Shown: positions 1 through 12,661 of the stretch, piece after piece
How the letters are laid out: every line of letters begins with the position of its first letter
Position numbering within the stretch: the first letter of the stretch is position 1
Assembly (NCBI GenBank): GCA_043797665.1
Contig: JAZDPL010000004.1
Location: 1-12,811 of the forward strand
Direction of reading: 5' to 3'
Source: Candidatus Omnitrophota bacterium
GTDB lineage: Bacteria > Ratteibacteria > UBA8468 > MWAK01
DNA length: 12,811 nt
Made by a program: the position numbers and the translations under genes
The notes under the pieces: model-generated
What the model was told of the DNA's origin: nothing
Seen by the model: only the letters and a program-made list of their open reading frames with translations
The model's database searches: none

Positions 1-131
1 GATGCCTTGCCTAACTTGGAGAGAATCAGCGTGATGGCACTGGTCAGGGTCGTTTTCCCGTGGTCGACGTGTCCGATGGTACCAACGTTAACGTGCGGTT
101 TTCCCCCGCGATCAAATTTTTCCTTTGCCAT
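1..131 (-). CDS. tuf: Elongation factor Tu, 5' part (runs off the left edge of the window)
   Basis: Manual translation from ATG at 131 gives [43 protein letters not shown], the EF-Tu N-terminus with G1 motif GHVDHGKT. Strong SD upstream; follows fusA. Confidence 0.97.
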
Positions 132-135
132 AATA

Positions 136-143
136 TCCTCCCT
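136..143 (-). promoter_or_regulatory. Shine-Dalgarno site of tuf (AGGGAGGA)
   Basis: Minus strand reads AAGGGAGGATATT-ATG. Confidence 0.85.
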
Positions 144-163
144 TGAAAATCAGAATACGGGTC

Positions 164-188
164 CCCTATCCCTTGAAGTAGGATAGGG
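164..188 (-). other. Intergenic stem-loop between fusA and tuf
   Basis: Perfect 8-bp inverted repeat CCCTATCC (164-171) / GGATAGGG (181-188) with a 9-nt loop. No U-tract follows on the minus strand. Confidence 0.6.
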
Positions 189-217
189 CTACTAAAGAAT
201 TTTATTATATTTCCTGG

Positions 218-2281
218 TCAGATGTCAATTACGCCTTCTTTTTCTACCGGCTCATAATGGCTGGGTTCCATTACATAACTGGCTCTTCCCTGGGAAACGG
301 AACGTAAAGAAGTGGCGTAACCAAAAAGGTGTGCCAGAGGGGCGATGGCTCTAATCACTTTAAGATGCGCCCAGTCACGAACCTCTTCAATTCTGCCCCG
401 GCGGCTGGTAATGTCACCGATGACGTCGCCTAAAAATTCCTCCGGGGTGGTAATCTCTAATTTCATAATCGGTTCCAGGATAATAGGCGCCGCCTTTTCT
501 ACCGCTTCCCGGAAACCAATGGAGGCGGCTATTCTGAAAGCAATATCCGAGGAATCGACCGGATGGAAGGAACCATCAAAGAGCGTAACCTTAATGTCTA
601 TCACCGGAAAACCTTTCAAAACTCCGGTTTCTGCCGCTTCGCGGACACCCTTTTCTATCGCCTTGAAATACTCTTTCGGAACGCGGTCACCCCTAATTTC
701 TTCTTCAAAAACCAGGTTACTACCTCTGGGTAAAGGCTCGACACGCAAGAACACATCGCCATACTGCCCTTTCCCGCCACTCTGACGGATAAATCTTCCC
801 TCCGCCTCCACAGTCCGTGTAATCGTCTCCCGGTAGGCAACCTGGGGCTGGCTTACCCTGGCTTCCACTTTAAACTCCCGAATCATCCGGTCCTGAATAA
901 TTTCTAAGTGCAATTCACCCATACCGGAGATGATGGTCTGCCCGGTCTCGGAATCGACCCGTAATTTAAAGGTCGGGTCTTCCTCGGCAAGCCGGTGGAG
1001 TGCGGCGCTCAATTTATCGGAATCGGCCCGGGTCTTCGGTTCTATCGCAACCGAAACGACCGGCTCCGGAATCGTAATCCTTTCTAAAACAATCGGGTGT
1101 TTTTCGGTACAGAGGGTATCACCGGTCCGGGTTTTTTTCAAACCTATCACCGCGGCGATTTCACCCGCTTCCGTATATTTCAAGTCTTCGCCCTGTCCCG
1201 CGTGCATACGCAGGATACGGTTTATACGCTCCCGTTCCTGATTGGTGCTGTTATGGACCATCGCACCGGTTCTTAAAATTCCGGAATAAATACGCAAATA
1301 GGTAAGCCGCCCCACGTACGGGTCGGTGGCAATCTTGAAAGCCAGCGCACAAAAATGTTCTTTCGGCGAAGGAGGCCTCTCTTCTTCCTTTTTGTTTTCG
1401 GGATTAAACCCCTTAACCGGCAGCACGTCCAACGGCGAAGGAAGAAACCCGCAGATGGCATCAAGAAGTAACGTGATACCCGTATTCTGTACCGAGGCAC
1501 CGCAGAGGACCGGAAGTATCTTGCCGTTCAAAACTTCCTGCCGCAAAACTTTTAGAATCAGTTCCTCCGGAATCTTTTCTTCTTTCAGATAGAGGGACAT
1601 CAACTCCTCATCGTCCCCCGCCAACCTTTCTAATAACAATTTGCGGGCCTTCTCTGCTCCGGGAAGCAGAGACTCCGGAATCGGTTCGTTGACAATTTCC
1701 TGGTTCTTCTCGCCGCGGCAGATCACCGCCTCCATCCGGACAAGATCAATTATGCCGGTAAATCCTTCCCCTTCGCCGATCGGTATCTGAATGGGACAAG
1801 GGTCTGCACCCAGACGTTCTTTCATCATTTGCACCGCCTGAAAAAAGTCCGCCCCGACCCGGTCCATCTTATTAATGTAGGCAATCCGCGGCACCTTATA
1901 CCGGTTCGCCTGATGCCAGACCGTTTCGGACTGGGGCTCGACTCCCCCGACGGCACAAAATATTCCGACCGCACCGTCAAGTACTCTCAAGGAGCGTTCT
2001 ACCTCCATGGTGAAGTCTACGTGACCCGGGGTGTCAATAAGGTTAATCTGAAAATTTTTCCAGTCAAAGGTGATGGCGGCGGAAGTGATGGTGATACCCC
2101 TCTCCTTCTCCTGTTCCATCCAATCGGTGGTGGTCGTCCCGTCATCCACCTCGCCGATGCGGTATAGTTTACCGCAACTGTAGAGCATCCGCTCGGTGGT
2201 GGTGGTCTTGCCCGCATCGATGTGGGCAATGATACCGATATTCCGTAACCGGGAAAGGTCTAAGTGTTCTTCCTGATTCAT
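218..2281 (-). CDS. fusA: Elongation factor G
   Basis: 687 aa with RNIGIIAHIDAGKTTTTER (G1), ERGITI (G2), DTPGHVDF (G3), NKMD (G4), SGMGELHLE, and domain IV QSGGKGQYG and DGSFHPVDSS. Directly upstream of tuf. Confidence 0.98.
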   Translation of the reverse strand: MNQEEHLDLSRLRNIGIIAHIDAGKTTTTERMLYSCGKLYRIGEVDDGTTTTDWMEQEKERGITITSAAITFDWKNFQINLIDTPGHVDFTMEVERSLRVLDGAVGIFCAVGGVEPQSETVWHQANRYKVPRIAYINKMDRVGADFFQAVQMMKERLGADPCPIQIPIGEGEGFTGIIDLVRMEAVICRGEKNQEIVNEPIPESLLPGAEKARKLLLERLAGDDEELMSLYLKEEKIPEELILKVLRQEVLNGKILPVLCGASVQNTGITLLLDAICGFLPSPLDVLPVKGFNPENKKEEERPPSPKEHFCALAFKIATDPYVGRLTYLRIYSGILRTGAMVHNSTNQERERINRILRMHAGQGEDLKYTEAGEIAAVIGLKKTRTGDTLCTEKHPIVLERITIPEPVVSVAIEPKTRADSDKLSAALHRLAEEDPTFKLRVDSETGQTIISGMGELHLEIIQDRMIREFKVEARVSQPQVAYRETITRTVEAEGRFIRQSGGKGQYGDVFLRVEPLPRGSNLVFEEEIRGDRVPKEYFKAIEKGVREAAETGVLKGFPVIDIKVTLFDGSFHPVDSSDIAFRIAASIGFREAVEKAAPIILEPIMKLEITTPEEFLGDVIGDITSRRGRIEEVRDWAHLKVIRAIAPLAHLFGYATSLRSVSQGRASYVMEPSHYEPVEKEGVIDI

Positions 2282-3468
2282 AATTTAAAGATTTTAATGA
2301 GGGAGGGGATTACTTCGTAGAGGTCTCCCACCAGTCCGTAATTGGCAATCCTGAATATCGGTGCGGACGGGTCCTTATTGATAGCCACAATCACGTCCGA
2401 AGTACCCATTCCCGCCAGGTGCTGGATGGCACCGGAGATTCCGCAGGCGAAATAGATTTTGGGTTTAACCGTCTTTCCGGTCTGCCCGACCTGGTGGGCA
2501 TAGGAAATCCAGCCTGAATCAACCGCAGCGCGGCTGGAGCCCACCACTCCACCCAGAGCATCCGCTAATTTTTTAATCAAAGCAAACCCTTCCGGTTTAC
2601 CCAATCCCCGGCCGCCGGAAACTATGATATCCGCATCGGTCAGGTCAATCTCTTCCACACCGGGAACGATATCCAGTAATCTCAGTTTAGACAAAGTCTT
2701 AATCCCGGAAACCGGAACTTCAATCACCTGGCCGTTCTTTGAAGATACGCCTTCTTTTGCCTCATCAAAGGTACGGGGTCTGACCGTAGCCATCTGGGGA
2801 CGGTGCCGTTCGCAGAGGATGGTAGCCAGCAGATTTCCGCCAAAGGTCGGACGGGTCTGGGCCAGAAGTTTCGTCTCCGGGTCAATCGCCAATCCGGTAC
2901 AATCCGCAGTGAGTCCGGTGCGCAAACGTGCCGCCACCCGGGGAATAAAGGACCGGCCGATGTAGGTTGCCCCGGCAAGCAAAATTGCCGGTTTAAAACG
3001 GGTAATCAGATGGGCCAGGATGTCCGTATACAGGTCGTCCTGAAAATTAAGGAGGGTTTCGTCGGAAACAACGTAAACCTTTTCCGCTCCCCGGTTCAGG
3101 AGCGCTTCAACATTAGACGGACTGACCGGTCCGATATAAAAAGCGCCGAGGCTTTCGCCCAGATCAACCGCTAATTTTCTCCCTTCTCCCAACAGTTCGA
3201 AAGAGACCCGGGCCAACTGTCCGGCCCGCTGTTCGGCAAATATCCACAGGTCTTTGTATTGAGAAACATCGGTTGCCGGTGCTGCCGCAGGTTCCCGTTC
3301 CAGGACAATCGCTCCCAGCCGGCAAGCCTCCACGCAGGCACCGCAGTAGTTACAAAGGTCAAGGTCAACAGACGCTATTTTGTCGACCACCTTTATGGCG
3401 TCAAACGGGCATGACTCGACGCACAGGTTACACCCGGTACATTTTTCTGCGACAACGGTTATCTTCAT
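2278..3468 (-). CDS. etfA: Electron transfer flavoprotein alpha subunit with N-terminal 2x[4Fe-4S] ferredoxin domain (CarE/FixB-like)
   Basis: Ferredoxin motifs CTGCNLCVESCP and CNYCGACVEAC. ETF-alpha motifs GLTADCT, RPTFGGN, SGGRGLG, QVGQTGKTVKP, GISGAIQHLAGM, AINKDPSAPIF. Confidence 0.96.
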   Translation of the reverse strand: MKITVVAEKCTGCNLCVESCPFDAIKVVDKIASVDLDLCNYCGACVEACRLGAIVLEREPAAAPATDVSQYKDLWIFAEQRAGQLARVSFELLGEGRKLAVDLGESLGAFYIGPVSPSNVEALLNRGAEKVYVVSDETLLNFQDDLYTDILAHLITRFKPAILLAGATYIGRSFIPRVAARLRTGLTADCTGLAIDPETKLLAQTRPTFGGNLLATILCERHRPQMATVRPRTFDEAKEGVSSKNGQVIEVPVSGIKTLSKLRLLDIVPGVEEIDLTDADIIVSGGRGLGKPEGFALIKKLADALGGVVGSSRAAVDSGWISYAHQVGQTGKTVKPKIYFACGISGAIQHLAGMGTSDVIVAINKDPSAPIFRIANYGLVGDLYEVIPSLIKIFKL

Positions 3469-3478
3469 GTAAAAAGAT

Positions 3479-4267
3479 TTACAAAATGTTCTGCTTTTTC
3501 AGTTCCTCGTAGAGCCGCTGCGCGATTTCCGCCGGCTCACCCTCAAACATCATCCCTTCCTTGTGTACCTCCGGCGTCCAGACGCGCATCACCCGGGTCG
3601 GTGAACCATCCGCACCGAACCGGTTCGCTTCCCCTCCCAGCCCTTCTCTATTCAGAACCGTAATCTCCGCCTTCTTCGCCTTCAACATCCCTTTTAAGGA
3701 AGGGAGCCTCGGTTCGGCAATTTCCTTAATCACCGTGATTACCGCCGGCAAAGGACCTTCCAGTTCCTCATAGTGGTCTTCCATCATCCGGCGCACTTTC
3801 ATCCTTCCGTCCGCGATTTCTTTAATCTCACTGACGTACGAAAAAAAGGGCCAGCCTAAATTTTCGGAAATCTCCGGACCAACCTGACCCGTAGAGCCGT
3901 CCATCGCCTCCCGGCCGCAGACCACGATATCCACCGGCAATAATTTCCCGATAAGCACCGCCAGAGTATAAGAAGTAGCCAGCGTGTCACTGCCGGCAAA
4001 CTCCCGGTCGCTTAAAAGAAAAGCCTGGTCAAAACCCAGGCTCAGAGCCTCCCGCAAAGCGCTTTCTGCCTGGGGTGGTCCCATGGAACAGACGACAGCC
4101 TGACCGCCGTACTTCTCCTTTAGACGCAAAGCCGTCTCCATCGCATAGAAATCACTCGGATTGATAATGCCGGGTACGCCTTCCCGGACGATGCGGTTAG
4201 TCTCCGGGTCAATTTTGACCTCCATCGTATCCGGCACCTGTTTAATGCAAACTACTATCTTTTCCAT
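3479..4267 (-). CDS. etfB: Electron transfer flavoprotein beta subunit (FixA/CarD-like)
   Basis: KIVVCIKQVPD, SMGPPQA, SDREFAGSDTLATS, DGSTGQVGP, EPRLPSL, GSPTRV. Ends 10 nt upstream of etfA. Confidence 0.96.
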   Translation of the reverse strand: MEKIVVCIKQVPDTMEVKIDPETNRIVREGVPGIINPSDFYAMETALRLKEKYGGQAVVCSMGPPQAESALREALSLGFDQAFLLSDREFAGSDTLATSYTLAVLIGKLLPVDIVVCGREAMDGSTGQVGPEISENLGWPFFSYVSEIKEIADGRMKVRRMMEDHYEELEGPLPAVITVIKEIAEPRLPSLKGMLKAKKAEITVLNREGLGGEANRFGADGSPTRVMRVWTPEVHKEGMMFEGEPAEIAQRLYEELKKQNIL

Positions 4268-4286
4268 AGAATGTGAAATTTTACCA

Positions 4287-7262
4287 TTAACCCTTAATTA
4301 CCGCAAGGGGAACCATCTGGCAGACCCGGCGGGAAAGACCGCTTCCTTCCACCACCTCCACCACCTGGTCAACGTCCTTATAAGCCTCCGGGACCTCTTC
4401 CGCTAAACCGCGCAAAGAAGGTGCGCGCGCCAATATTCCGAGGGAAGCCATCTCTGCTACTGCCGAACGTCCCTGCATCTTCTTGACCGCCTCGTGCCGG
4501 GAAAGGTTCCGGCCCGCACCGTGGCAGGTAGACCCCCAGGTTTCGGAAAGCGCCTTTTCCGTACCGACCAGAACGTAAGAAGAAGTCCCCATCGTACCGG
4601 GAATCAGGACCGGCTGGCCCACCGACGCATAGATATCCGGAACTCCCGGAACGTTGGCGGGAAAAGCGCGGGTAGCGCCTTTCCGGTGGACCAGTACCTT
4701 CATCCTCTTTCCTTCAAACTGATGTTCTTCCATCTTGGCGATGTTGTGCGCCACGTCATAAACCGTGGCCAGGCCCAATTCTTCTGCGCTCTTTCCCAAC
4801 AACTTACCGAACGTCTCGTTAATCCAATAAGCGATAACCTGCCGGTTCGCCCAGGCAAAATTCGCTGCCGAAGCCATCGCGCCTAAATAACCCTGGCCTT
4901 CACCGGAAGAAATCGGTGCGCAGACCAACTGCCTGTCCGGCGGAAAGACGCCGTATTTCTGACTCACCTTGCTGAAAAGTGACAGATAGTCATCCGCTAC
5001 CTGATAACCCAGGCCCCGACTTCCGGTATGAACCATCACCGTAATCTGACCGGGAGAAAGACCGAAAACCCCGGCAATCTCCGGGTCAAAAATTCTCTTC
5101 ACTTCCTGAATCTCCACAAAATGGTTCCCGCTGCCCAAAGTCCCCAACTGGTCCGAACCCCGTTCGTAAGCCCGGCTGCTTAATTTATCCGGGTTGGCTA
5201 AACCGTAGCGTCCCGTCTCTTCAATCACCGCAAGGTCGGATTCTTTTCCGTAACCGGCTTTGACCGCCCAGACCGCTCCGGTCTCCAGAACTTCGGACAG
5301 TTGAGTCCGGGAGAGTTTCAGACGGCCGGTTCCGCCCACTCCGCAGGGAATAGCTCGATAGAGTCCGTCAACCAATTCCTTCAATTTTCCGGTAATTTCC
5401 TCTTTACGCAGATTCGTACGCAAAAGCCTCACGCCGCAGTTGGAAACAACAAAATTATTGGCTATAAAGTTATGGTCGTGGTGACAGACCGTAAAATCAT
5501 AGACATAATCGTCAAAATCAATCTTTTCAATGGCTGAGAGCCTATCCCAGGCCATACCCGAAAGTCCCAACCCCGAAGTTCTTGATTTCACGAAGTCACC
5601 GAATTTTTCAAAATTGAACGCAATCCGGGGGGGAGTCTCTCTGTTTTCATAAATTGTTCTTTCAATAAATCGTAAATTAACGGATTTTTTCTCCGCCGGC
5701 GAAAGCCCGGCATAGATTTTCCTGGCGCTCAAACCTTTTCCCTTTAAGGAAAGAATACGGGTGGCGATTCTCTCCCTTTCGCTGACCGCCTTCTTTTTTT
5801 CCGTCAGGTATAAGATGGCAGCGTTTGCCAGAAAACTTCTCTGCCGGTTGTATTCAAACCCGACTTTGCTGTAAAGATTAATCAGGTTTTCCGGTTCACT
5901 GGAAACAAGCAATCTTAATCGGCAAGATTTTCTTCGGCTCTTCCCCACGTACTCAATCCGGTGAGAAATTTTTCTGGTTGCTACGCCAAATTCTTTTAAT
6001 AATCCGCTGACCCCTTTGAGAAATTTTTTGCCGTTTTCTACGTAACCTTCCCTTTTATTCATGGAAATCGCCGGCCCGTAAAAATTATATCCGTGTCCGG
6101 TTACAGTCTTGGGTTTTGACATTTCGGCACCGAAGAAGGCCGCCAGAAAAAGCCTTTTTTGCCAAAGGGTACATCCAAAAATCCAGGAGGGAACGGCATA
6201 ATTGATAAACGTTTTATTTCCTATCGGAACTCCGAGCAAAGAGAAGAACACCGCCAAACTGGTTGACCCAAGAACATAACTATTCTCAACCCTTTGAAAC
6301 TTATATGTTTTGTAATGGGTGACAATCTCATGATTTCTTACCCTCTGATATATTCGGGAAGATTTGTATCCTAAGCTGATAAGGTCTTCTTTGATTTTTT
6401 TCAGGTCTTCTTCACCGCCATAAAAAGAAATAACTCCCTTATCACCCTGTGATTCAAAATGTACGTTGCCGTCCCCAAAAATGTAACCCATCAATTTCAA
6501 AAGAATGGGAAGCGCTGAAGAACTATATTTCAACGGAAGCAAATTTTTTTCTTTCAGACGGTTGATTATCTGTACGGCGGCATTACCACCCGTTTTACCC
6601 ATCTCTTCCAGTTTCCGCCTGACCATCTCTTCGTTCAGGATGATTTCTGACGAAGGACGTTCGTAAGACACCCCCCGGAAGGGATATACGGCCAGTTCAT
6701 CATTTAGATTCAACCGGTTAAACGGTTTCATCCCGTCCCTTGTATAAAATGGATGGTCACCAGTGGCGATTATATTGAATCCGGAATCGGTCTTCAATCT
6801 GTACACGTTTTCCCGGGGTTTGGACTTCAGAAATCTTCTTATACCGGTATCATTGGGAACGTGGTCGTTTAAATTAATGCAGGTCAATTTCTCTTCCGGC
6901 CAAACCTTTTCGTAATCGCTGATTTTTAATGTATATCCAAATTCGCTGAGAATCTGCGTATCACCGGAAATGCAGTTGATGTCGTATCCCACGATGCCGG
7001 GAACCGCTACACCCTCTTTTAAGTCAAAGGCGGCTACCCCGCCGATCGGTGCACCGTACCCCCAGTGGATGTCCGGCATCGCCAGCGAATACCGTAAAAT
7101 CCCCGGCAGGTGCGCCACGTTGGCAACCTGTTCCGGTGCCCGGTCCGCAGTAACCTTGGCAAGCATTGCCTCGGAAGAATAAATTATTCCGGGCACCCGC
7201 ATCCCGCCGGTCCGCGGCAGCAGAAACCGGAACTGGTCAATCTTCTCTAACTTGTAATCCAT
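4287..7262 (-). CDS. rtcB: RtcB family RNA ligase (long, archaeal-like type), intein-containing precursor; 479 aa after splicing
   Basis: AMPDIHWGYG, VGYDIN|CGVR (split by the intein), LGTLGSGNHF, VHTGSRG, YDVAHNIAK, HRKGATRA, PGTMG, TCHGAGR, EEVPEAYKD and C-terminal KG. Confidence 0.97.
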   Translation of the reverse strand: MDYKLEKIDQFRFLLPRTGGMRVPGIIYSSEAMLAKVTADRAPEQVANVAHLPGILRYSLAMPDIHWGYGAPIGGVAAFDLKEGVAVPGIVGYDINCISGDTQILSEFGYTLKISDYEKVWPEEKLTCINLNDHVPNDTGIRRFLKSKPRENVYRLKTDSGFNIIATGDHPFYTRDGMKPFNRLNLNDELAVYPFRGVSYERPSSEIILNEEMVRRKLEEMGKTGGNAAVQIINRLKEKNLLPLKYSSSALPILLKLMGYIFGDGNVHFESQGDKGVISFYGGEEDLKKIKEDLISLGYKSSRIYQRVRNHEIVTHYKTYKFQRVENSYVLGSTSLAVFFSLLGVPIGNKTFINYAVPSWIFGCTLWQKRLFLAAFFGAEMSKPKTVTGHGYNFYGPAISMNKREGYVENGKKFLKGVSGLLKEFGVATRKISHRIEYVGKSRRKSCRLRLLVSSEPENLINLYSKVGFEYNRQRSFLANAAILYLTEKKKAVSERERIATRILSLKGKGLSARKIYAGLSPAEKKSVNLRFIERTIYENRETPPRIAFNFEKFGDFVKSRTSGLGLSGMAWDRLSAIEKIDFDDYVYDFTVCHHDHNFIANNFVVSNCGVRLLRTNLRKEEITGKLKELVDGLYRAIPCGVGGTGRLKLSRTQLSEVLETGAVWAVKAGYGKESDLAVIEETGRYGLANPDKLSSRAYERGSDQLGTLGSGNHFVEIQEVKRIFDPEIAGVFGLSPGQITVMVHTGSRGLGYQVADDYLSLFSKVSQKYGVFPPDRQLVCAPISSGEGQGYLGAMASAANFAWANRQVIAYWINETFGKLLGKSAEELGLATVYDVAHNIAKMEEHQFEGKRMKVLVHRKGATRAFPANVPGVPDIYASVGQPVLIPGTMGTSSYVLVGTEKALSETWGSTCHGAGRNLSRHEAVKKMQGRSAVAEMASLGILARAPSLRGLAEEVPEAYKDVDQVVEVVEGSGLSRRVCQMVPLAVIKG
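5439..6974 (-). mobile_element. Intein (512 aa, precursor residues 97-608) with LAGLIDADG homing endonuclease
   Basis: Block A CISGDT follows GYDIN. Block B ATGDHPF. LAGLIDADG-like LMGYIFGDG (6468-6494) and FLAAFFGAEM (6120-6149). Blocks F/G VYDFTV..HNFIANNFVVSN followed by +1 Cys. Removal restores GYDINCGVR. The DNA looks more AT-rich than the exteins. Confidence 0.96.
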
Positions 7263-7274
7263 AATTTTACGCTT

Positions 7275-7290
7275 CGGACTGTGTCCGCCG
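7275..7290. repeat. Short palindromic repeat copy CGGACTGTGTCCGCCG at the left boundary of the AT-rich cassette
   Basis: Matches CGGACCTGTCCGCCG at 12512-12526. GTGTCCGCCG (7281-7290) is identical to 12529-12538. Confidence 0.6.
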
Positions 7291-7353
7291 GAATTCGGTA
7301 ATGGAAATTTCGTAATAGCAAAGGTGTCACGCCGCCTTTTGATTTATAGATTA

Positions 7354-8736
7354 CTAAACATGAGCGATAAAATCCAGAACCATGAAAGCACGGATCAAAT
7401 AATCTTTTCTACCGTATTTTACACTTTCGCCATGAATAATCTTGTGTCGGTTAAAATTGAATGGTGTTGCAAGCGGCTTACCTTTTTGTGATTTTTGAAA
7501 AAGAATGTTCAAAAATATATAGTTTGCAATATCATCAAGTGGACCCGACAAAATTTCAGGCTTAGCATTTTTAAATCGAGTTTTCCTACCAATTTTCACA
7601 ACCTTGCCTGTTTTGCTATTAACCCCATCGTCATAAGAACAATCCCACGGAATACCTTTTGAATATAGATAATCGGTCAATGCTCCGTCAATCTGCGTAA
7701 TCAAGGTGGGCAAAATAACATTCGCCTTATTTAGTCCCTTTTTGCTTGCTATTTTTACTATTTTCACGCAATCCGCGAGGATTTTATATCGTTTTTTGAA
7801 CAAAAGTTTATTTTCCCAATCATTAACCATGATTTCCAAGTTGCGCCAATTTTTTGCTTCAAAATATTTAATAAATAATTTATTGACCGCTTTATCTTGT
7901 CTGCCCTGCTTCTTATCCAGATTCACCACCTCAAAAATGAAAGGCATTGGAAAGCTCGGCGTAATAAACCATTTATATTTTTGCAAAACTCTAACCGCTT
8001 TTTGTTCGGCTATATTGTATTTTTGCTGAAACCCTATCCAATGGTTTGAAAAGTTATCAAATATTTTTCTGTTTTGTTCCGTCCATTTTTGCCAAAAATC
8101 AATTTGCGGGCGTAACGATTCTGTAATAATTTTTGCTGTGGCTTGGTATTGTTCAATTACAGGTTTAATGGATTCAGCAAAACGGCGTTGCGTGTCACTG
8201 ATCTGTTTAGCGACACCTGCAAGCCCTTGCAATGAGTCTCGAATGTATGATGTGCCACCAATTGCTTGCTGAATTACAGAAGCGTAGTTTTTATTGAAAG
8301 CATTTAGTGTTTCTTGTGCCCATTTAACAATCGGCTCAAAAGTTTTCCTCAATTCTTCGATGTTCTTTTCGTAACCAATCTCAAGTGCTTTCTTGAAATC
8401 TTTGAAAAAGTCCCCAGCATTTTGAAAATACTTAAACTCGTATTTTTCATTTTCAACAAAAACTTCTGCTAATTTCTTCAGTTCATCATCTGAAATTTTT
8501 TGAAAGTCCGCAAAACCAATTTGGGGATTAACTAATTGCTGGAATAAAACCTCCGCAACAAAATCTCTGTCGGATAATTGCTTTTGCAGTAGCCTGGTAA
8601 ATTCTATCGTATCACCACACGAAATATACTTTAGCTCTATATCACCTAAAGACTCCACCCGTGTTTTTGTATTGCTCGAGGTCAGTACAACGGTTTTATT
8701 GTTCGATTGTTGCAATTTCTTCATTTGTGAGGCCAT
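7354..8736 (-). CDS. Hypothetical protein: helical/coiled-coil middle region and C-terminal putative HEPN-like domain (NRHKIIHG, Rx4H)
   Basis: 460-aa ORF in AT-rich DNA, co-oriented with and overlapping the RM gene end (alternative start ATG 8724). Rx4H motif at 7429-7452. Ends in a double stop TAG TAA. Confidence 0.8.
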   Translation of the reverse strand: MASQMKKLQQSNNKTVVLTSSNTKTRVESLGDIELKYISCGDTIEFTRLLQKQLSDRDFVAEVLFQQLVNPQIGFADFQKISDDELKKLAEVFVENEKYEFKYFQNAGDFFKDFKKALEIGYEKNIEELRKTFEPIVKWAQETLNAFNKNYASVIQQAIGGTSYIRDSLQGLAGVAKQISDTQRRFAESIKPVIEQYQATAKIITESLRPQIDFWQKWTEQNRKIFDNFSNHWIGFQQKYNIAEQKAVRVLQKYKWFITPSFPMPFIFEVVNLDKKQGRQDKAVNKLFIKYFEAKNWRNLEIMVNDWENKLLFKKRYKILADCVKIVKIASKKGLNKANVILPTLITQIDGALTDYLYSKGIPWDCSYDDGVNSKTGKVVKIGRKTRFKNAKPEILSGPLDDIANYIFLNILFQKSQKGKPLATPFNFNRHKIIHGESVKYGRKDYLIRAFMVLDFIAHV

Positions 8737-11389
8737 AGAGTTTATAAACTTCCTCGTCTATTTGGCGGTCAAGTTTTTCAATCTCTTTCTTCAATTGGTT
8801 GTGCTGGTCAGTTTTGGAAGATAATTTGCTCAATCGCTCGTGAAGATCAAGCATGAGTTTGGCAAGTTTTGCGATTTTCTCTTGCTCTTTCTCATCTGTG
8901 GTGGGAATTGGAAACATCGCCAGTTCTTTCACTTTAAATTGGGGGAAAGTTTTGCGTTGGAACTTGTCAAAAATATTCACAAACCAAAAAGTCGTAATTC
9001 TTGAATTTAGAACGGCAAGAACAAAAAACGGCTCAACACCATGAAAGTCGTAAACAATCATGCTATTGATGTCGTTCAGTAGATATTCTTTAGTGAATAC
9101 TGCGTTGATTGAATAAGGCGGTGGTGATGGAATTTGCCTAACTAAAATTCTTGGACTTGTAAACAATTTCTCATCTCTTGGTGCGGCTAAACACTCGCCA
9201 TATTTTAGCCACCAACCACCCCAATCTATTCCGTATCTTTTAACATCTTTGCCCTCTAAATACTTTCCATAATCAGCCCCGTCTTTTGACTTGCTATGAT
9301 AGATTCGAGCGTTTTTCATTGTGTCTGTTTGGGCCGGTTTTCCTTTGCCTGTTTCGTACGCTTTCAGTCCTGCTTTGACTATGGAAAATTGGTCTAGCAT
9401 TTTTGAGCCATCTTTAATTTTGTCTAATATCGCCATTTTGTCTTTGTTTTTCGCCAGTGAAATATTAATGATATAGTTGTTTTTCTTGAAAAGCGAAGCC
9501 GGGAAGTCGCCGACAATTTCAAGTTTCCCATTTCTAAATTCCCCAAGCGTTACATCGGTGGGTTTGCCTTTTTTGAAAATTAGTAGACAGGTATCAACGT
9601 TGGCGTCTTCAAAAACCTTATCGTAGATATTGATAATTTGAAGATTGCTGGTTTCTTCCAGTAGAAATTTTCTGAGCGGTGAAAAGGTGTCAATAGTCAA
9701 CCAGGTGTTGGGAATTATAAAACCGAAATAACCTCCTTTTTTGAGCAGGCGGAAAGAGTGGTCAACAAACAAAAGGTAAGTGTTTAACTGGTAATTGGCT
9801 AACGGAAAGTTGTCGTAGTAATACTTTTTTGTTTTCTCGTCGAAATGTCCACCGCGTGCGAACACATACGGCGGATTGCCGATAATCACATCAAAACCAC
9901 CTTGTTCAAAAACATCTTTGAATTCTTCTTCAAAGTTAAACGGTCTTTGTTCGCGATAGTCGGGGCCGAAATACTTTTCCAGAGTTTCAGCCGTTCCCGA
10001 CACAAGCGAATTGCCTGAATTTAAATTATGTTGAAGCGTGGGGAGTTTTGTTTTCTGCGTCAAAACTTTCAAAAGCAAGTTGAGTTGGGCGATTTCCACC
10101 GCTTGCGTATCAAGGTCAACGCCGAAAATATTCTCCTTGAGAATGTCAAACCTGGTAAAAAGCGAAGTCTGTGAATTTTGTTTTGTTACTGTTTCTAAAA
10201 TTTTGTCGTAGGCGGCAGTCAAAAACGAACCGGAACCGCAGGCGGGGTCAAGCACCTTAATTTTGGATATTTCTTTTGGTTTGGTTTTCTTTAAAATTTC
10301 ACCCAGCGTTTCTTCGACGATGAATTCAACGATATATTTCGGCGTGTAGTAAATACCCTGCGATTTCCGCTTGGACCTCTGTTTGTCTTCGCTTTTTCGC
10401 CCCTGAACAAAACTCAAATACTGCTCATACATTCCACCCAATACATCGGCGGAAATGGCGGAAAAATCATAGCGGTAGCCGTCTTTTGTCTGATAGAGCC
10501 CCTTGACCATATCTGCTGTCGGCTTGTCGTCTGCTACCCATTCCTCGCAGTAATGGGGCGCGAAAAGTTTTGAGTTGTAGCCGTCGTCAAAATCCCGGAA
10601 AATCCTGACAATCTGTTTGTAGACATTTCTGTTTTTTGCGCTTCTTTCCCATATCCGCAAAATTCCCAGAAGGACATCCGGTTCAATTTTCCGGTCTTCG
10701 GCGGTGCGGATAAATATAAGGCGGTCTAAAATCCGTTGTACTCCTTCGTCCAATTCCTCATTTGTGAGAACGTTTTTCTTTTTGAATTCTCTGGTAAGTG
10801 TTGTCCGCCAGGACATTAAGTCCTCAAAAAGTTTTTCGCTGACTTGTTTTCTTTGGACGAGTTTACCCCATTTTTCCGCTTCTTTATCAAGAAATCTTTG
10901 TTCAAAACTTTCTTTTGACAAAAGCCATAACTGGTCAAATCTTGAGATGAATTCGTGGTATTTTATTTCAATAAATAAATTTTGTGATAAACTTTTTGGC
11001 GGAATTTCAGCGTTAAATATCTTAATACTTTCAAAATCGGTGAGAATGGCCCAGGTTACGCTCTTATTCCAACTGTAGTTGATTGCCTGTTCCGCCCACT
11101 TCCACTCGTCTAAATCAACTTTCATCGCTTTGGCTTCCAAAAACACTATCGGGATATTATTCAAACGAAAAGCCAAATCAATTCTTCCGCCGGAAACATT
11201 TTCTTCGGTCGTCACTTCGTTGTCGGTGGTTAGGTTCCGCATATCCCAACCCAAGAATTCAAAAAGCGGCTCAATAAATTCGTTCCTGGTTTGGGCTTCG
11301 TTATAGAACTTAACTTTCCCGGCTTCAAGAATTCGCTGGTACTTTTCAACTAATTTCTCAATTCCTATCTTTGCTTCTTGTTTATTCAT
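8696..11389 (-). CDS. Type IIG restriction-modification enzyme (endonuclease + N6-adenine methyltransferase + target recognition domain; Eco57I/TaqI-C-like)
   Basis: N-terminal NEAQTR..IEPLF..LGWD and RIDLAF..FLEAK (PD-(D/E)xK, HsdR_N-like). Methyltransferase motif X GIYYTP, motif I VLDPACGSGSFL, motif IV IIGNPPY. C-terminal AVLNS and helical tail IDEEVYKLYGL. Confidence 0.93.
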   Translation of the reverse strand: MNKQEAKIGIEKLVEKYQRILEAGKVKFYNEAQTRNEFIEPLFEFLGWDMRNLTTDNEVTTEENVSGGRIDLAFRLNNIPIVFLEAKAMKVDLDEWKWAEQAINYSWNKSVTWAILTDFESIKIFNAEIPPKSLSQNLFIEIKYHEFISRFDQLWLLSKESFEQRFLDKEAEKWGKLVQRKQVSEKLFEDLMSWRTTLTREFKKKNVLTNEELDEGVQRILDRLIFIRTAEDRKIEPDVLLGILRIWERSAKNRNVYKQIVRIFRDFDDGYNSKLFAPHYCEEWVADDKPTADMVKGLYQTKDGYRYDFSAISADVLGGMYEQYLSFVQGRKSEDKQRSKRKSQGIYYTPKYIVEFIVEETLGEILKKTKPKEISKIKVLDPACGSGSFLTAAYDKILETVTKQNSQTSLFTRFDILKENIFGVDLDTQAVEIAQLNLLLKVLTQKTKLPTLQHNLNSGNSLVSGTAETLEKYFGPDYREQRPFNFEEEFKDVFEQGGFDVIIGNPPYVFARGGHFDEKTKKYYYDNFPLANYQLNTYLLFVDHSFRLLKKGGYFGFIIPNTWLTIDTFSPLRKFLLEETSNLQIINIYDKVFEDANVDTCLLIFKKGKPTDVTLGEFRNGKLEIVGDFPASLFKKNNYIINISLAKNKDKMAILDKIKDGSKMLDQFSIVKAGLKAYETGKGKPAQTDTMKNARIYHSKSKDGADYGKYLEGKDVKRYGIDWGGWWLKYGECLAAPRDEKLFTSPRILVRQIPSPPPYSINAVFTKEYLLNDINSMIVYDFHGVEPFFVLAVLNSRITTFWFVNIFDKFQRKTFPQFKVKELAMFPIPTTDEKEQEKIAKLAKLMLDLHERLSKLSSKTDQHNQLKKEIEKLDRQIDEEVYKLYGLTNEEIATIEQ

Positions 11390-11415
11390 CGTTATATAGA
11401 GCGTACGCAGGTATT

Positions 11416-11862
11416 CTAATCGTCTAACAATTGTGGGAAATTTTCCTTAAGCCAATTATGTACTATCTCTAAAAATTTTCCTGCCTCTTCAATTAATTCC
11501 TCAACCTCAGATTCTGAAATGCCACCGATGTGGCTGTAATCCGTTATATTCCGTTTTGTTCTGCAAGAATCAAAATAGTCTACCAGGTCATAATGTTCCT
11601 TACCCATTATTTCCCGTATTGCCTTAAACACAGTGGAATGATGCCCTACGCCTTTCGGTTTATACCCTCTGCAATAGACAACCATAATGGCTGACTGTAA
11701 AATCGCGTTGTAAGCAGTAGCAAATCTTCTGTCAGAGGAAACGCTTTTTACCTTAGCATCTTGTATGTCACGCTTTATGAGCCGCAATAAATTTCCAATC
11801 TCTTCTTTTGAGGTCTTATGGCGCGTCAAATTACCCTGATTTAATAATTCGCTTAAATTCAT
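11416..11862 (-). CDS. HEPN domain protein (putative toxin partner of the MNT)
   Basis: 148 aa from ATG 11862, with SD GGGAG 5 nt upstream. Helical HEPN pattern FATAYNAILQ..GHH..RTKRNITDY. Overlaps the nucleotidyltransferase gene. Confidence 0.82.
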   Translation of the reverse strand: MNLSELLNQGNLTRHKTSKEEIGNLLRLIKRDIQDAKVKSVSSDRRFATAYNAILQSAIMVVYCRGYKPKGVGHHSTVFKAIREIMGKEHYDLVDYFDSCRTKRNITDYSHIGGISESEVEELIEEAGKFLEIVHNWLKENFPQLLDD

Positions 11863-12421
11863 CTTCACTCCCGACAATAAATATCTTTTCTTCCTTCATT
11901 ACCGTATTCAGAAAATGGTCTTTTTGTTCTACCTTCTCCTTAAACTCTTCCACGTCAAATACTGCGTAGTTTATCTCACGGCTCAATTCCCTTTTGGGTT
12001 TAACCAGAATCTTGGAGAGAGCACGCGAACTAATGTTACCAACCACCAACAAATCAATATCACTTAAAGAACTCTCCTTCCCTTTTGCGTAAGAACCGTA
12101 GATAAAGGCAAAGGTAATATCATCCGACTTGCGAAGGTATTCTCTAAGAGATTCTGCTATCCCCGCACTCTTAAACAAAATCCTTTTTAATTCTTCAAAT
12201 ATGGGACAGATTTTATTGACGTTGTAATATACGCGGTTATCCTGTCCGAATCTCTCAATGAGACCAATTTCCTCAAGTTTATTTACCTCCCGCTGAACAG
12301 CACGTATGGGTTGATGTGTAAGAGTGGCTATTTGTCTTTGATAAAACTTTCCATCCGGATTAAATAGAAATAACTTTAAAATTTCCACGCGTGCCTTTGA
12401 AGAAAAAAGTTTATCCAACAC
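11831..12421 (-). CDS. Winged-HTH + minimal nucleotidyltransferase (MNT) fusion, putative antitoxin and autorepressor
   Basis: N-terminal LFSSKARVEIL..YQRQIA..AVQREVNKLEEIGLI (wHTH). C-terminal YGSYAKG..SDIDLLVVG (GSx10DxD, Pol-beta superfamily). GTG start at 12421 chosen because SD GGAGG lies 6 nt upstream. Confidence 0.9.
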   Translation of the reverse strand: MLDKLFSSKARVEILKLFLFNPDGKFYQRQIATLTHQPIRAVQREVNKLEEIGLIERFGQDNRVYYNVNKICPIFEELKRILFKSAGIAESLREYLRKSDDITFAFIYGSYAKGKESSLSDIDLLVVGNISSRALSKILVKPKRELSREINYAVFDVEEFKEKVEQKDHFLNTVMKEEKIFIVGSEDEFKRIIKSG

Positions 12422-12432
12422 GAACCACCTCC

Positions 12433-12471
12433 ATATACATTTTGTAGTCAATTATATACATTTTGTAGTCA
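12433..12471. repeat. Two exact 18-bp direct repeats ATATACATTTTGTAGTCA (12433-12450, 12454-12471); putative operators
   Basis: 21-bp period. Each copy holds the palindrome TACA-TTT-TGTA. They overlap the promoter spacer/-10 and the predicted transcription start. Confidence 0.85.
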
Positions 12472-12479
12472 TAAGTCAA
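12451..12479 (-). promoter_or_regulatory. Sigma70-type promoter of the MNT-HEPN operon
   Basis: Minus strand TTGACT (12479-12474), 17-nt spacer, TATAAT (12456-12451). SD GGAGGTGG at 12432-12425. Confidence 0.85.
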
Positions 12480-12510
12480 GTTTTCTGGCAGTAAAATTAA
12501 TTTTTAGAAA

Positions 12511-12583
12511 GCGGACCTGTCCGCCGACGTGTCCGCCGTAGCCTTGTGCGCAGGCGGAAGCTCGCCTTGTGAACGTAGGCGGA
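12511..12583. repeat. Cluster of nested REP-like palindromes (TCCGCC...GGCGGA) overlapping the tRNA 3' end
   Basis: TCCGCC at 12520-12525 and 12532-12537; GGCGGA at 12553-12558 and 12578-12583; GCCTTGTG repeated at 12541-12548 and 12564-12571; palindrome GCGGAC-CT-GTCCGC at 12511-12524. Confidence 0.7.
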
Positions 12584-12661
12584 GGGTGAGGGATTCGAAC
12601 CCCCATGGGCGTGAACCCGGCGGATTTCAAATCCGCTGCCTTACCGTTAGACTAACCCTCC
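12580..12661 (-). tRNA. tRNA-Ser (anticodon UGA), CCA not fully encoded
   Basis: Minus strand: acceptor stem GGAGGGT/ACCCTCC with discriminator G; anticodon arm GCGGA-TTTGAAA-TCCGC; variable arm GGG-TTCACG-CCC; T arm GGGGG-TTCGAAT-CCCTC. Followed by CCT. Confidence 0.95.

Follow-up and report, generated by a model that had tools for sequence, protein, structure and literature searches.

We analysed a 12,811-nucleotide stretch of DNA (the window). Its minus strand carries, in order, tRNA-Ser(TGA), a wHTH-nucleotidyltransferase gene, a small HEPN gene, a Type IIG restriction-modification (RM) gene, an open reading frame for a 460-aa protein, rtcB, etf genes and an EF-G homologue (the etf and EF-G labels were assigned by eye). 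The features that concern us are:

12578..12661, minus strand: tRNA-Ser(TGA), one border of a 5.3-kb low-GC insertion
11831..12451, minus strand: wHTH-nucleotidyltransferase (PADLOC PDC-M05A)
11416..11877, minus strand: small HEPN protein (PADLOC PDC-M05B), which belongs to the MNT-HEPN pair that makes up the first half of the island
8696..11389, minus strand: Type IIG RM enzyme, 897 aa, catalytic motifs intact (PADLOC, Pfam, motifs)
8696..8736, minus strand: overlap of the IIG and 460-aa genes, a conserved IIG 3' tail with an out-of-frame ATG
7354..8736, minus strand: 460-aa protein, with a predicted tail-assembly-chaperone (TAC) fold, an amphipathic helical linker and a HEPN-type domain
8383..8676, minus strand: N-terminal domain, residues 21-118, predicted phage TAC fold, likely sensor
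8035..8382, minus strand: amphipathic helical linker, residues 119-234, length highly variable across the family
7357..8034, minus strand: C-terminal HEPN-type domain, residues 235-460, predicted homodimer (weak fold matches, dimer model)
7432..7449, minus strand: Rx4H motif R430-H431-K-I-I-H435, predicted RNase active site (conservation)

We found that the four middle genes form an inserted low-GC defence block. Their GC content is 35-42%, compared to 48-56% in bases 1-5500. One border is the tRNA gene and the second edge lies near 7290, ahead of rtcB. In a genome of the same genus, the match to the window continues up to 7290 and the tRNA 3' end follows 18 nt on, and because of this junction we regard the block as an insertion. 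The interval between tRNA-Ser(TGA) and rtcB (window 7290-12570; L222-L224) is an insertion hotspot: it is apparently empty in two other genomes, G054 (close to a contig end) and G056. In G057 it holds one different gene, and an integrase-like ORF lies beyond the tRNA (label by eye).

Two further observations concern the flanks of the block. A perfect 18-nt direct repeat (12433-12450 and 12454-12471, within window 12433-12479) flanks a minus-strand sigma-70 promoter (11/12 match) that precedes the wHTH-MNT gene, and is likely an autoregulatory operator of the island. A GGAGG just past the promoter and repeat suggests that the MNT gene starts near 12420 rather than at 12451. On the other side, RtcB (window 4287-7262) is interrupted by an intein that weakly matches LAGLIDADG. 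The intein is also present in the same-genus genome (991 aa), and three family-level relatives have intein-free RtcB of 477-479 aa. We considered RtcB as an RNA-repair partner of the 460-aa protein and ruled it out, as RtcB belongs to the native gene content of 4 of 5 relatives without the 460-aa gene.

The first-pass annotation of this DNA had called the 897-aa ORF a Type IIG enzyme, and profile searches bear this out (PADLOC PDLC03604, E 2e-115; Pfam HSDR_N, N6_Mtase/Eco57I and TaqI_C). Nuclease, N6-adenine methylase and specificity domains lie together in one chain, with the motifs D71..E85xK87, DPACGSG and NPPY. It had also placed the start of the 460-aa ORF inside this gene, correctly: counted from M1 (8736) the two genes share 41 nt, and counted from M5 (8724) they share 29 nt. 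No further ATG, GTG or TTG occurs in frame before V27, which falls within the first strand of the folded domain, so the start indeed lies inside the RM gene.

Judged by its homologues, the 460-aa ORF is a real conserved gene. There were 229 close homologues among 6466 candidates, and the family comprises 1076 clusters at 50% identity (E<=0.001), of which we examined the best 150. It is spread over many uncultured lineages and was found in 1 of the 65 host-phylum genomes; no relative turned up in contigs of viral origin or in records of phages and plasmids. The protein matched no Pfam, PADLOC or NCBIfam family at cut-off. Among 98 relatives no family from these three libraries describes the protein; the methylase matches came from a single 606-aa relative, P0187, in which part of a C5 cytosine methylase is fused ahead of the TAC-fold domain. 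Searches of solved-structure sequences returned generic helical bundles only, and full-length fold searches were dominated by linker matches. At six loci, including a Type III RM-linked clade, the gene is followed by an unannotated protein of ~800 aa (e.g., L008:7244-9652, L047 and L089:609-3020) with no Pfam or PADLOC match at the thresholds applied.

The protein has three parts, as first annotated: an alpha/beta domain (residues ~21-118), amphipathic helices (119-234) and a helical C-terminal domain. The last contains F-N-R430-H-K-I-I-H435-G, and both residues of the proposed active site are conserved (R in 119/120 sequences, H435 in 119/120). The Rx4H motif is kept in 137 of 138 complete representatives (R[HNDQ]xxxHG in 133, RHxxxH in 4 more, H missing in 1). 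A separate count of 98/98 came from an alignment without truncated and motif-less rows and is therefore not our main count. A C-domain dimer was predicted with a score of 0.73 (control 0.00); the interface includes I433-E437 and places the motif at the seam, a result that may reflect likeness to solved dimers. Fold searches with the C-domain gave weak matches to RnlA and to a DUF4209 protein. Pfam PF13910 (DUF4209) was unmatched by the 460-aa protein and by its own genome; of 42 families for the 98 members, the 25 shown did not include it, which leaves room for no more than one matching member, at E 0.022-0.05. The neighbouring small HEPN protein (11416..11877) has no profile similarity to the C-domain. 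The earlier proposal of a HEPN-type RNase is supported by the conserved motif, the weak fold matches and the predicted dimer, and we regard the domain as HEPN-type, with a predicted HEPN fold, and as a predicted RNase.

The small N-terminal domain had also been noticed before, but the most unusual part of the protein, the predicted TAC fold of this domain, had not. In structural comparisons residues 21-118 are predicted to share the fold of HK97 gp13, YqbN, Rbstp2171 and T4-like baseplate hub assembly proteins. Of 150 diverse representatives, 92 retain the domain, in which G31, D42, Q67 and P71 are conserved; 58 of 149 representatives consist of linker and HEPN domain without it. The N-domain sequence matched none of the TAC-named Pfam or PHROG families. 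hhalign comparisons with TAC families, made post hoc, were weak, and known TAC-fold families likewise missed one another. The TAC profiles are shallow, because collecting TAC and DUF4209 families from genomes yielded almost nothing. A feature search of the Atlas with the N-domain gave no usable match, and a short-length search gave 10 matches, all close kin of the 460-aa family (three inspected look truncated or internally deleted). Unlike in phage TACs, the fold is here fused to an RNase-type domain, lies outside tail operons and was not found in phage collections. There were no tail genes among the annotated neighbours of the family, and the gene does not lie between tail tube and tape-measure genes. 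Separately, two adjoining hypothetical genes of cyanophage S-TIM5 (145 and 114 aa; L119:48737-49511), upstream of the tail sheath gene, appear TAC-like in fold, with genes and BFVD rows paired by length only.

The protein might be an anti-phage HEPN RNase whose TAC-like domain only oligomerises, or senses another phage protein or a stress. The HEPN and context evidence would be the same, similarity of fold proves no function, the sequence link to TACs is weak, and TAC folds self-assemble into spirals unaided. However, a phage-specific fold kept in so many representatives, with conserved positions, leads us to infer that the usual binding partner of a TAC is the simplest trigger, and we consider this alternative unlikely.

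The linker is strongly amphipathic, with a hydrophobic period of 3.55, and its length between anchors ranges from 82 to 259 in family representatives. Weak matches to a tape-measure PHROG occurred in 17 of 62 members. Such features would suit a protein in which the linker mimics a tape measure and is coated by phage chaperones, and in which the fused TAC-fold cap holds linker and RNase off until phage TAC or tape-measure protein (TMP) displaces it. The representatives without an N-domain fit this arrangement, as does the match of the short form (linker plus HEPN) to phrog_28904 in 53 of 62 members and to 290-aa Atlas clusters. However, the same tape-measure profile matches apolipoproteins and designed bundles, so its matches are probably compositional. 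In addition, linker lengths show no clear repeat period, and the full-length model (pTM 0.49) has no confident packing of N-domain against linker. We regard the capped-linker arrangement as unlikely.

We surveyed the surroundings of the gene at 96 loci (16 from genomes and the best 80 of 86 from metagenomes). We set aside 34 loci with <1 kb upstream and no RM gene, and the remaining 62 were reduced to 47 at 90% identity within label. Neighbours were labelled by the longest member of each cluster, and a few labels rest on contig-edge fragments. Within three genes upstream and co-directional, we found a IIG gene at 10 loci, ISP at 7, Type I at 4, Type III at 4, a IIG tail only at 2 and none at 20. 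RM and defence genes are thus frequent neighbours, as proposed at first, with an RM gene or remnant upstream in 27 of 47 loci (raw counts). Where no RM gene was upstream, ten loci had a further gene of defence type in the vicinity (BREX, RM genes elsewhere, Dsr1, NucC-like, weak AbiU2, Panacea) and none was detected at the other ten, in a scan that covered 62 of 75 neighbours.

These data bear on the model of the first-pass annotation, a PrrC-like guard in which the RM enzyme keeps the RNase silent and releases it when a phage inhibits the enzyme. The model agrees with the co-directional RM gene found within three genes upstream at 25 of the 47 loci (a IIG relative is directly adjacent in 8 of these), with two loci (L016 and L082) where the gene sits between hsdS and hsdR, a slot like that of PrrC, and with the methylase fusion in P0187. 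However, four unrelated RM types alternate upstream (14 label changes on a quick tree, minimum 5), and the 20 loci with no upstream RM gene, half of them with no defence gene detected, argue against a guarded partner. One homologue (L020), 95-96% identical to IIG-linked copies, has only the last ~17 RM codons ahead of it. We also surveyed from the enzyme's side: among 351 genomes from a single Patescibacteria class, 10 had a relative of the IIG enzyme. With the centre genome excluded, the next gene was readable in 6 of 9, and 0 of 6 carried the 460-aa family, including beside a copy 80% identical to that of the window. A fixed Type I linkage of the PrrC kind was not found, with IIG in the window and Type I in 4/47 loci. 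Neither an ATPase family (Pfam, PADLOC, NCBIfam) nor an ATPase fold was found in the protein, in agreement with the earlier annotation but against a PrrC-like guard. The dedicated pairing with Type IIG was not supported by the survey, and guarding of the RM enzyme now seems distinctly unlikely.

The overlap itself is real yet not partner-specific. The out-of-frame ATG in the conserved last ~20 IIG codons was seen in the window and at six loci (L001, L004, L015, L020, L111 and L007). This ATG starts the 460-aa gene, but also an unrelated 240-aa gene (L111:4391-5113) and a 311-aa gene (L007:11403-12338), and a remnant of the tail outlasts loss of the RM gene at L020:1600-1740. Because the upstream RM gene varies and is often missing, and because the IIG tail starts other genes, we conclude that the 460-aa gene favours RM-adjacent defence slots without a fixed partner. 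It may act together, in trans, with an RM enzyme encoded at another genomic site. The IIG tail would provide a built-in start codon and a slot for exchangeable cargo, so that overlap with an RM gene is no evidence of a dedicated partnership.

The gene could also be a selfish toxin or an island-stabilising RNase that hitch-hikes behind RM genes and has no part in phage defence. Its patchy spread and the MNT-HEPN pair in the same block agree with this, and the island would be explained without a small antitoxin. We found no conserved antitoxin neighbour, however, and the phage-type N-domain and neighbouring defence systems (BREX, Dsr1, NucC-like) speak against a purely selfish role, which we judge very improbable.

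Based on these results we suggest, with a probability of about 0.4, that the 460-aa protein is a one-protein anti-phage RNase: its TAC-fold domain would bind tape-measure protein or the chaperone spiral, switch on HEPN dimers and abort infection. The RM enzyme would be a separate, earlier first line of defence. The RNase would be silent in uninfected cells. Late in infection, the TAC-fold domain would bind the phage TMP or enter the chaperone spiral, and binding would cluster the HEPN dimers or unlock them through linker release. The active dimers would then cleave RNA and shut the infected cell down. That the sensor is a captured phage TAC acting as an integrated decoy, which coats TMP or joins the spiral so that templated assembly turns on the RNase dimers, is a tentative reading. 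Such an activation is consistent with what is described in parts of the literature: TACs coat TMP (PMC10884400) and form spirals, both TAC and TMP have been proven to trigger other defences, and HEPN activation by phage structures is described for RAZR and HepS (PMC13434031, PMC13017515).

The family is large, unnamed in four family libraries and represented by a single, directly testable gene, and could help to show how tape-measure proteins are recognised by TACs. If the proposal is true, the protein would clearly exemplify, in bacteria, an integrated decoy built from the phage's own assembly machinery. We found no description of a TAC-fold-HEPN fusion in full-text searches of the literature (subscription papers and supplements, outside this scope, could hold one), and the fusion is absent from the four libraries.

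Single proteins of sensor-plus-HEPN type and HEPN genes within RM operons are already known. As described in parts of the cited sources, DS-11 is a further single-protein example (PMC13092281), and a catalogue of HEPN genes in RM operons dates from 2013 (PMC3710099). RAZR (zinc finger plus HEPN/DUF4145; PMC13017515, PMC13434031) likewise joins a small N-terminal sensor to a C-terminal HEPN in one protein, and the model that we propose here is likewise one in which the protein becomes active by clustering on an assembly of phage proteins. In contrast to RAZR, the 460-aa protein has a predicted TAC fold instead of a zinc finger (there is a single Cys in the N-domain), a long helical linker and no DUF4145 match. 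HepS (Gifsy-1 HEPN; PMC13434031) also consists of one HEPN protein that responds to a phage tail protein, but differs from the present proposal in that it binds a tail-tip J peptide allosterically; the 460-aa protein had no sequence match to it among solved-structure sequences. PrrC and RloC (PMC3710099) are HEPN Rx4-6H nucleases often found in RM loci, like the 460-aa family, which differs in having no ABC ATPase, no fixed RM partner and often no upstream RM gene. By fold and language-model features the nearest named HEPN branch is the DUF4209/C6orf70 family, also reported in RM operons (PMC3710099), from which the 460-aa protein differs in having no PF13910 match listed and another domain fusion. 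Slfn5, Avs17/Avs18 and Tab sense or target TAC or TMP, as we propose, but use Ig-like, STAND or other domains; a TAC-fold sensor is not among the features given in the parts of their descriptions considered here. Known tail-sensing defences have host-type sensor domains, and a TAC-derived sensor, if true, would target a contact that phages with long tails could give up only with difficulty.
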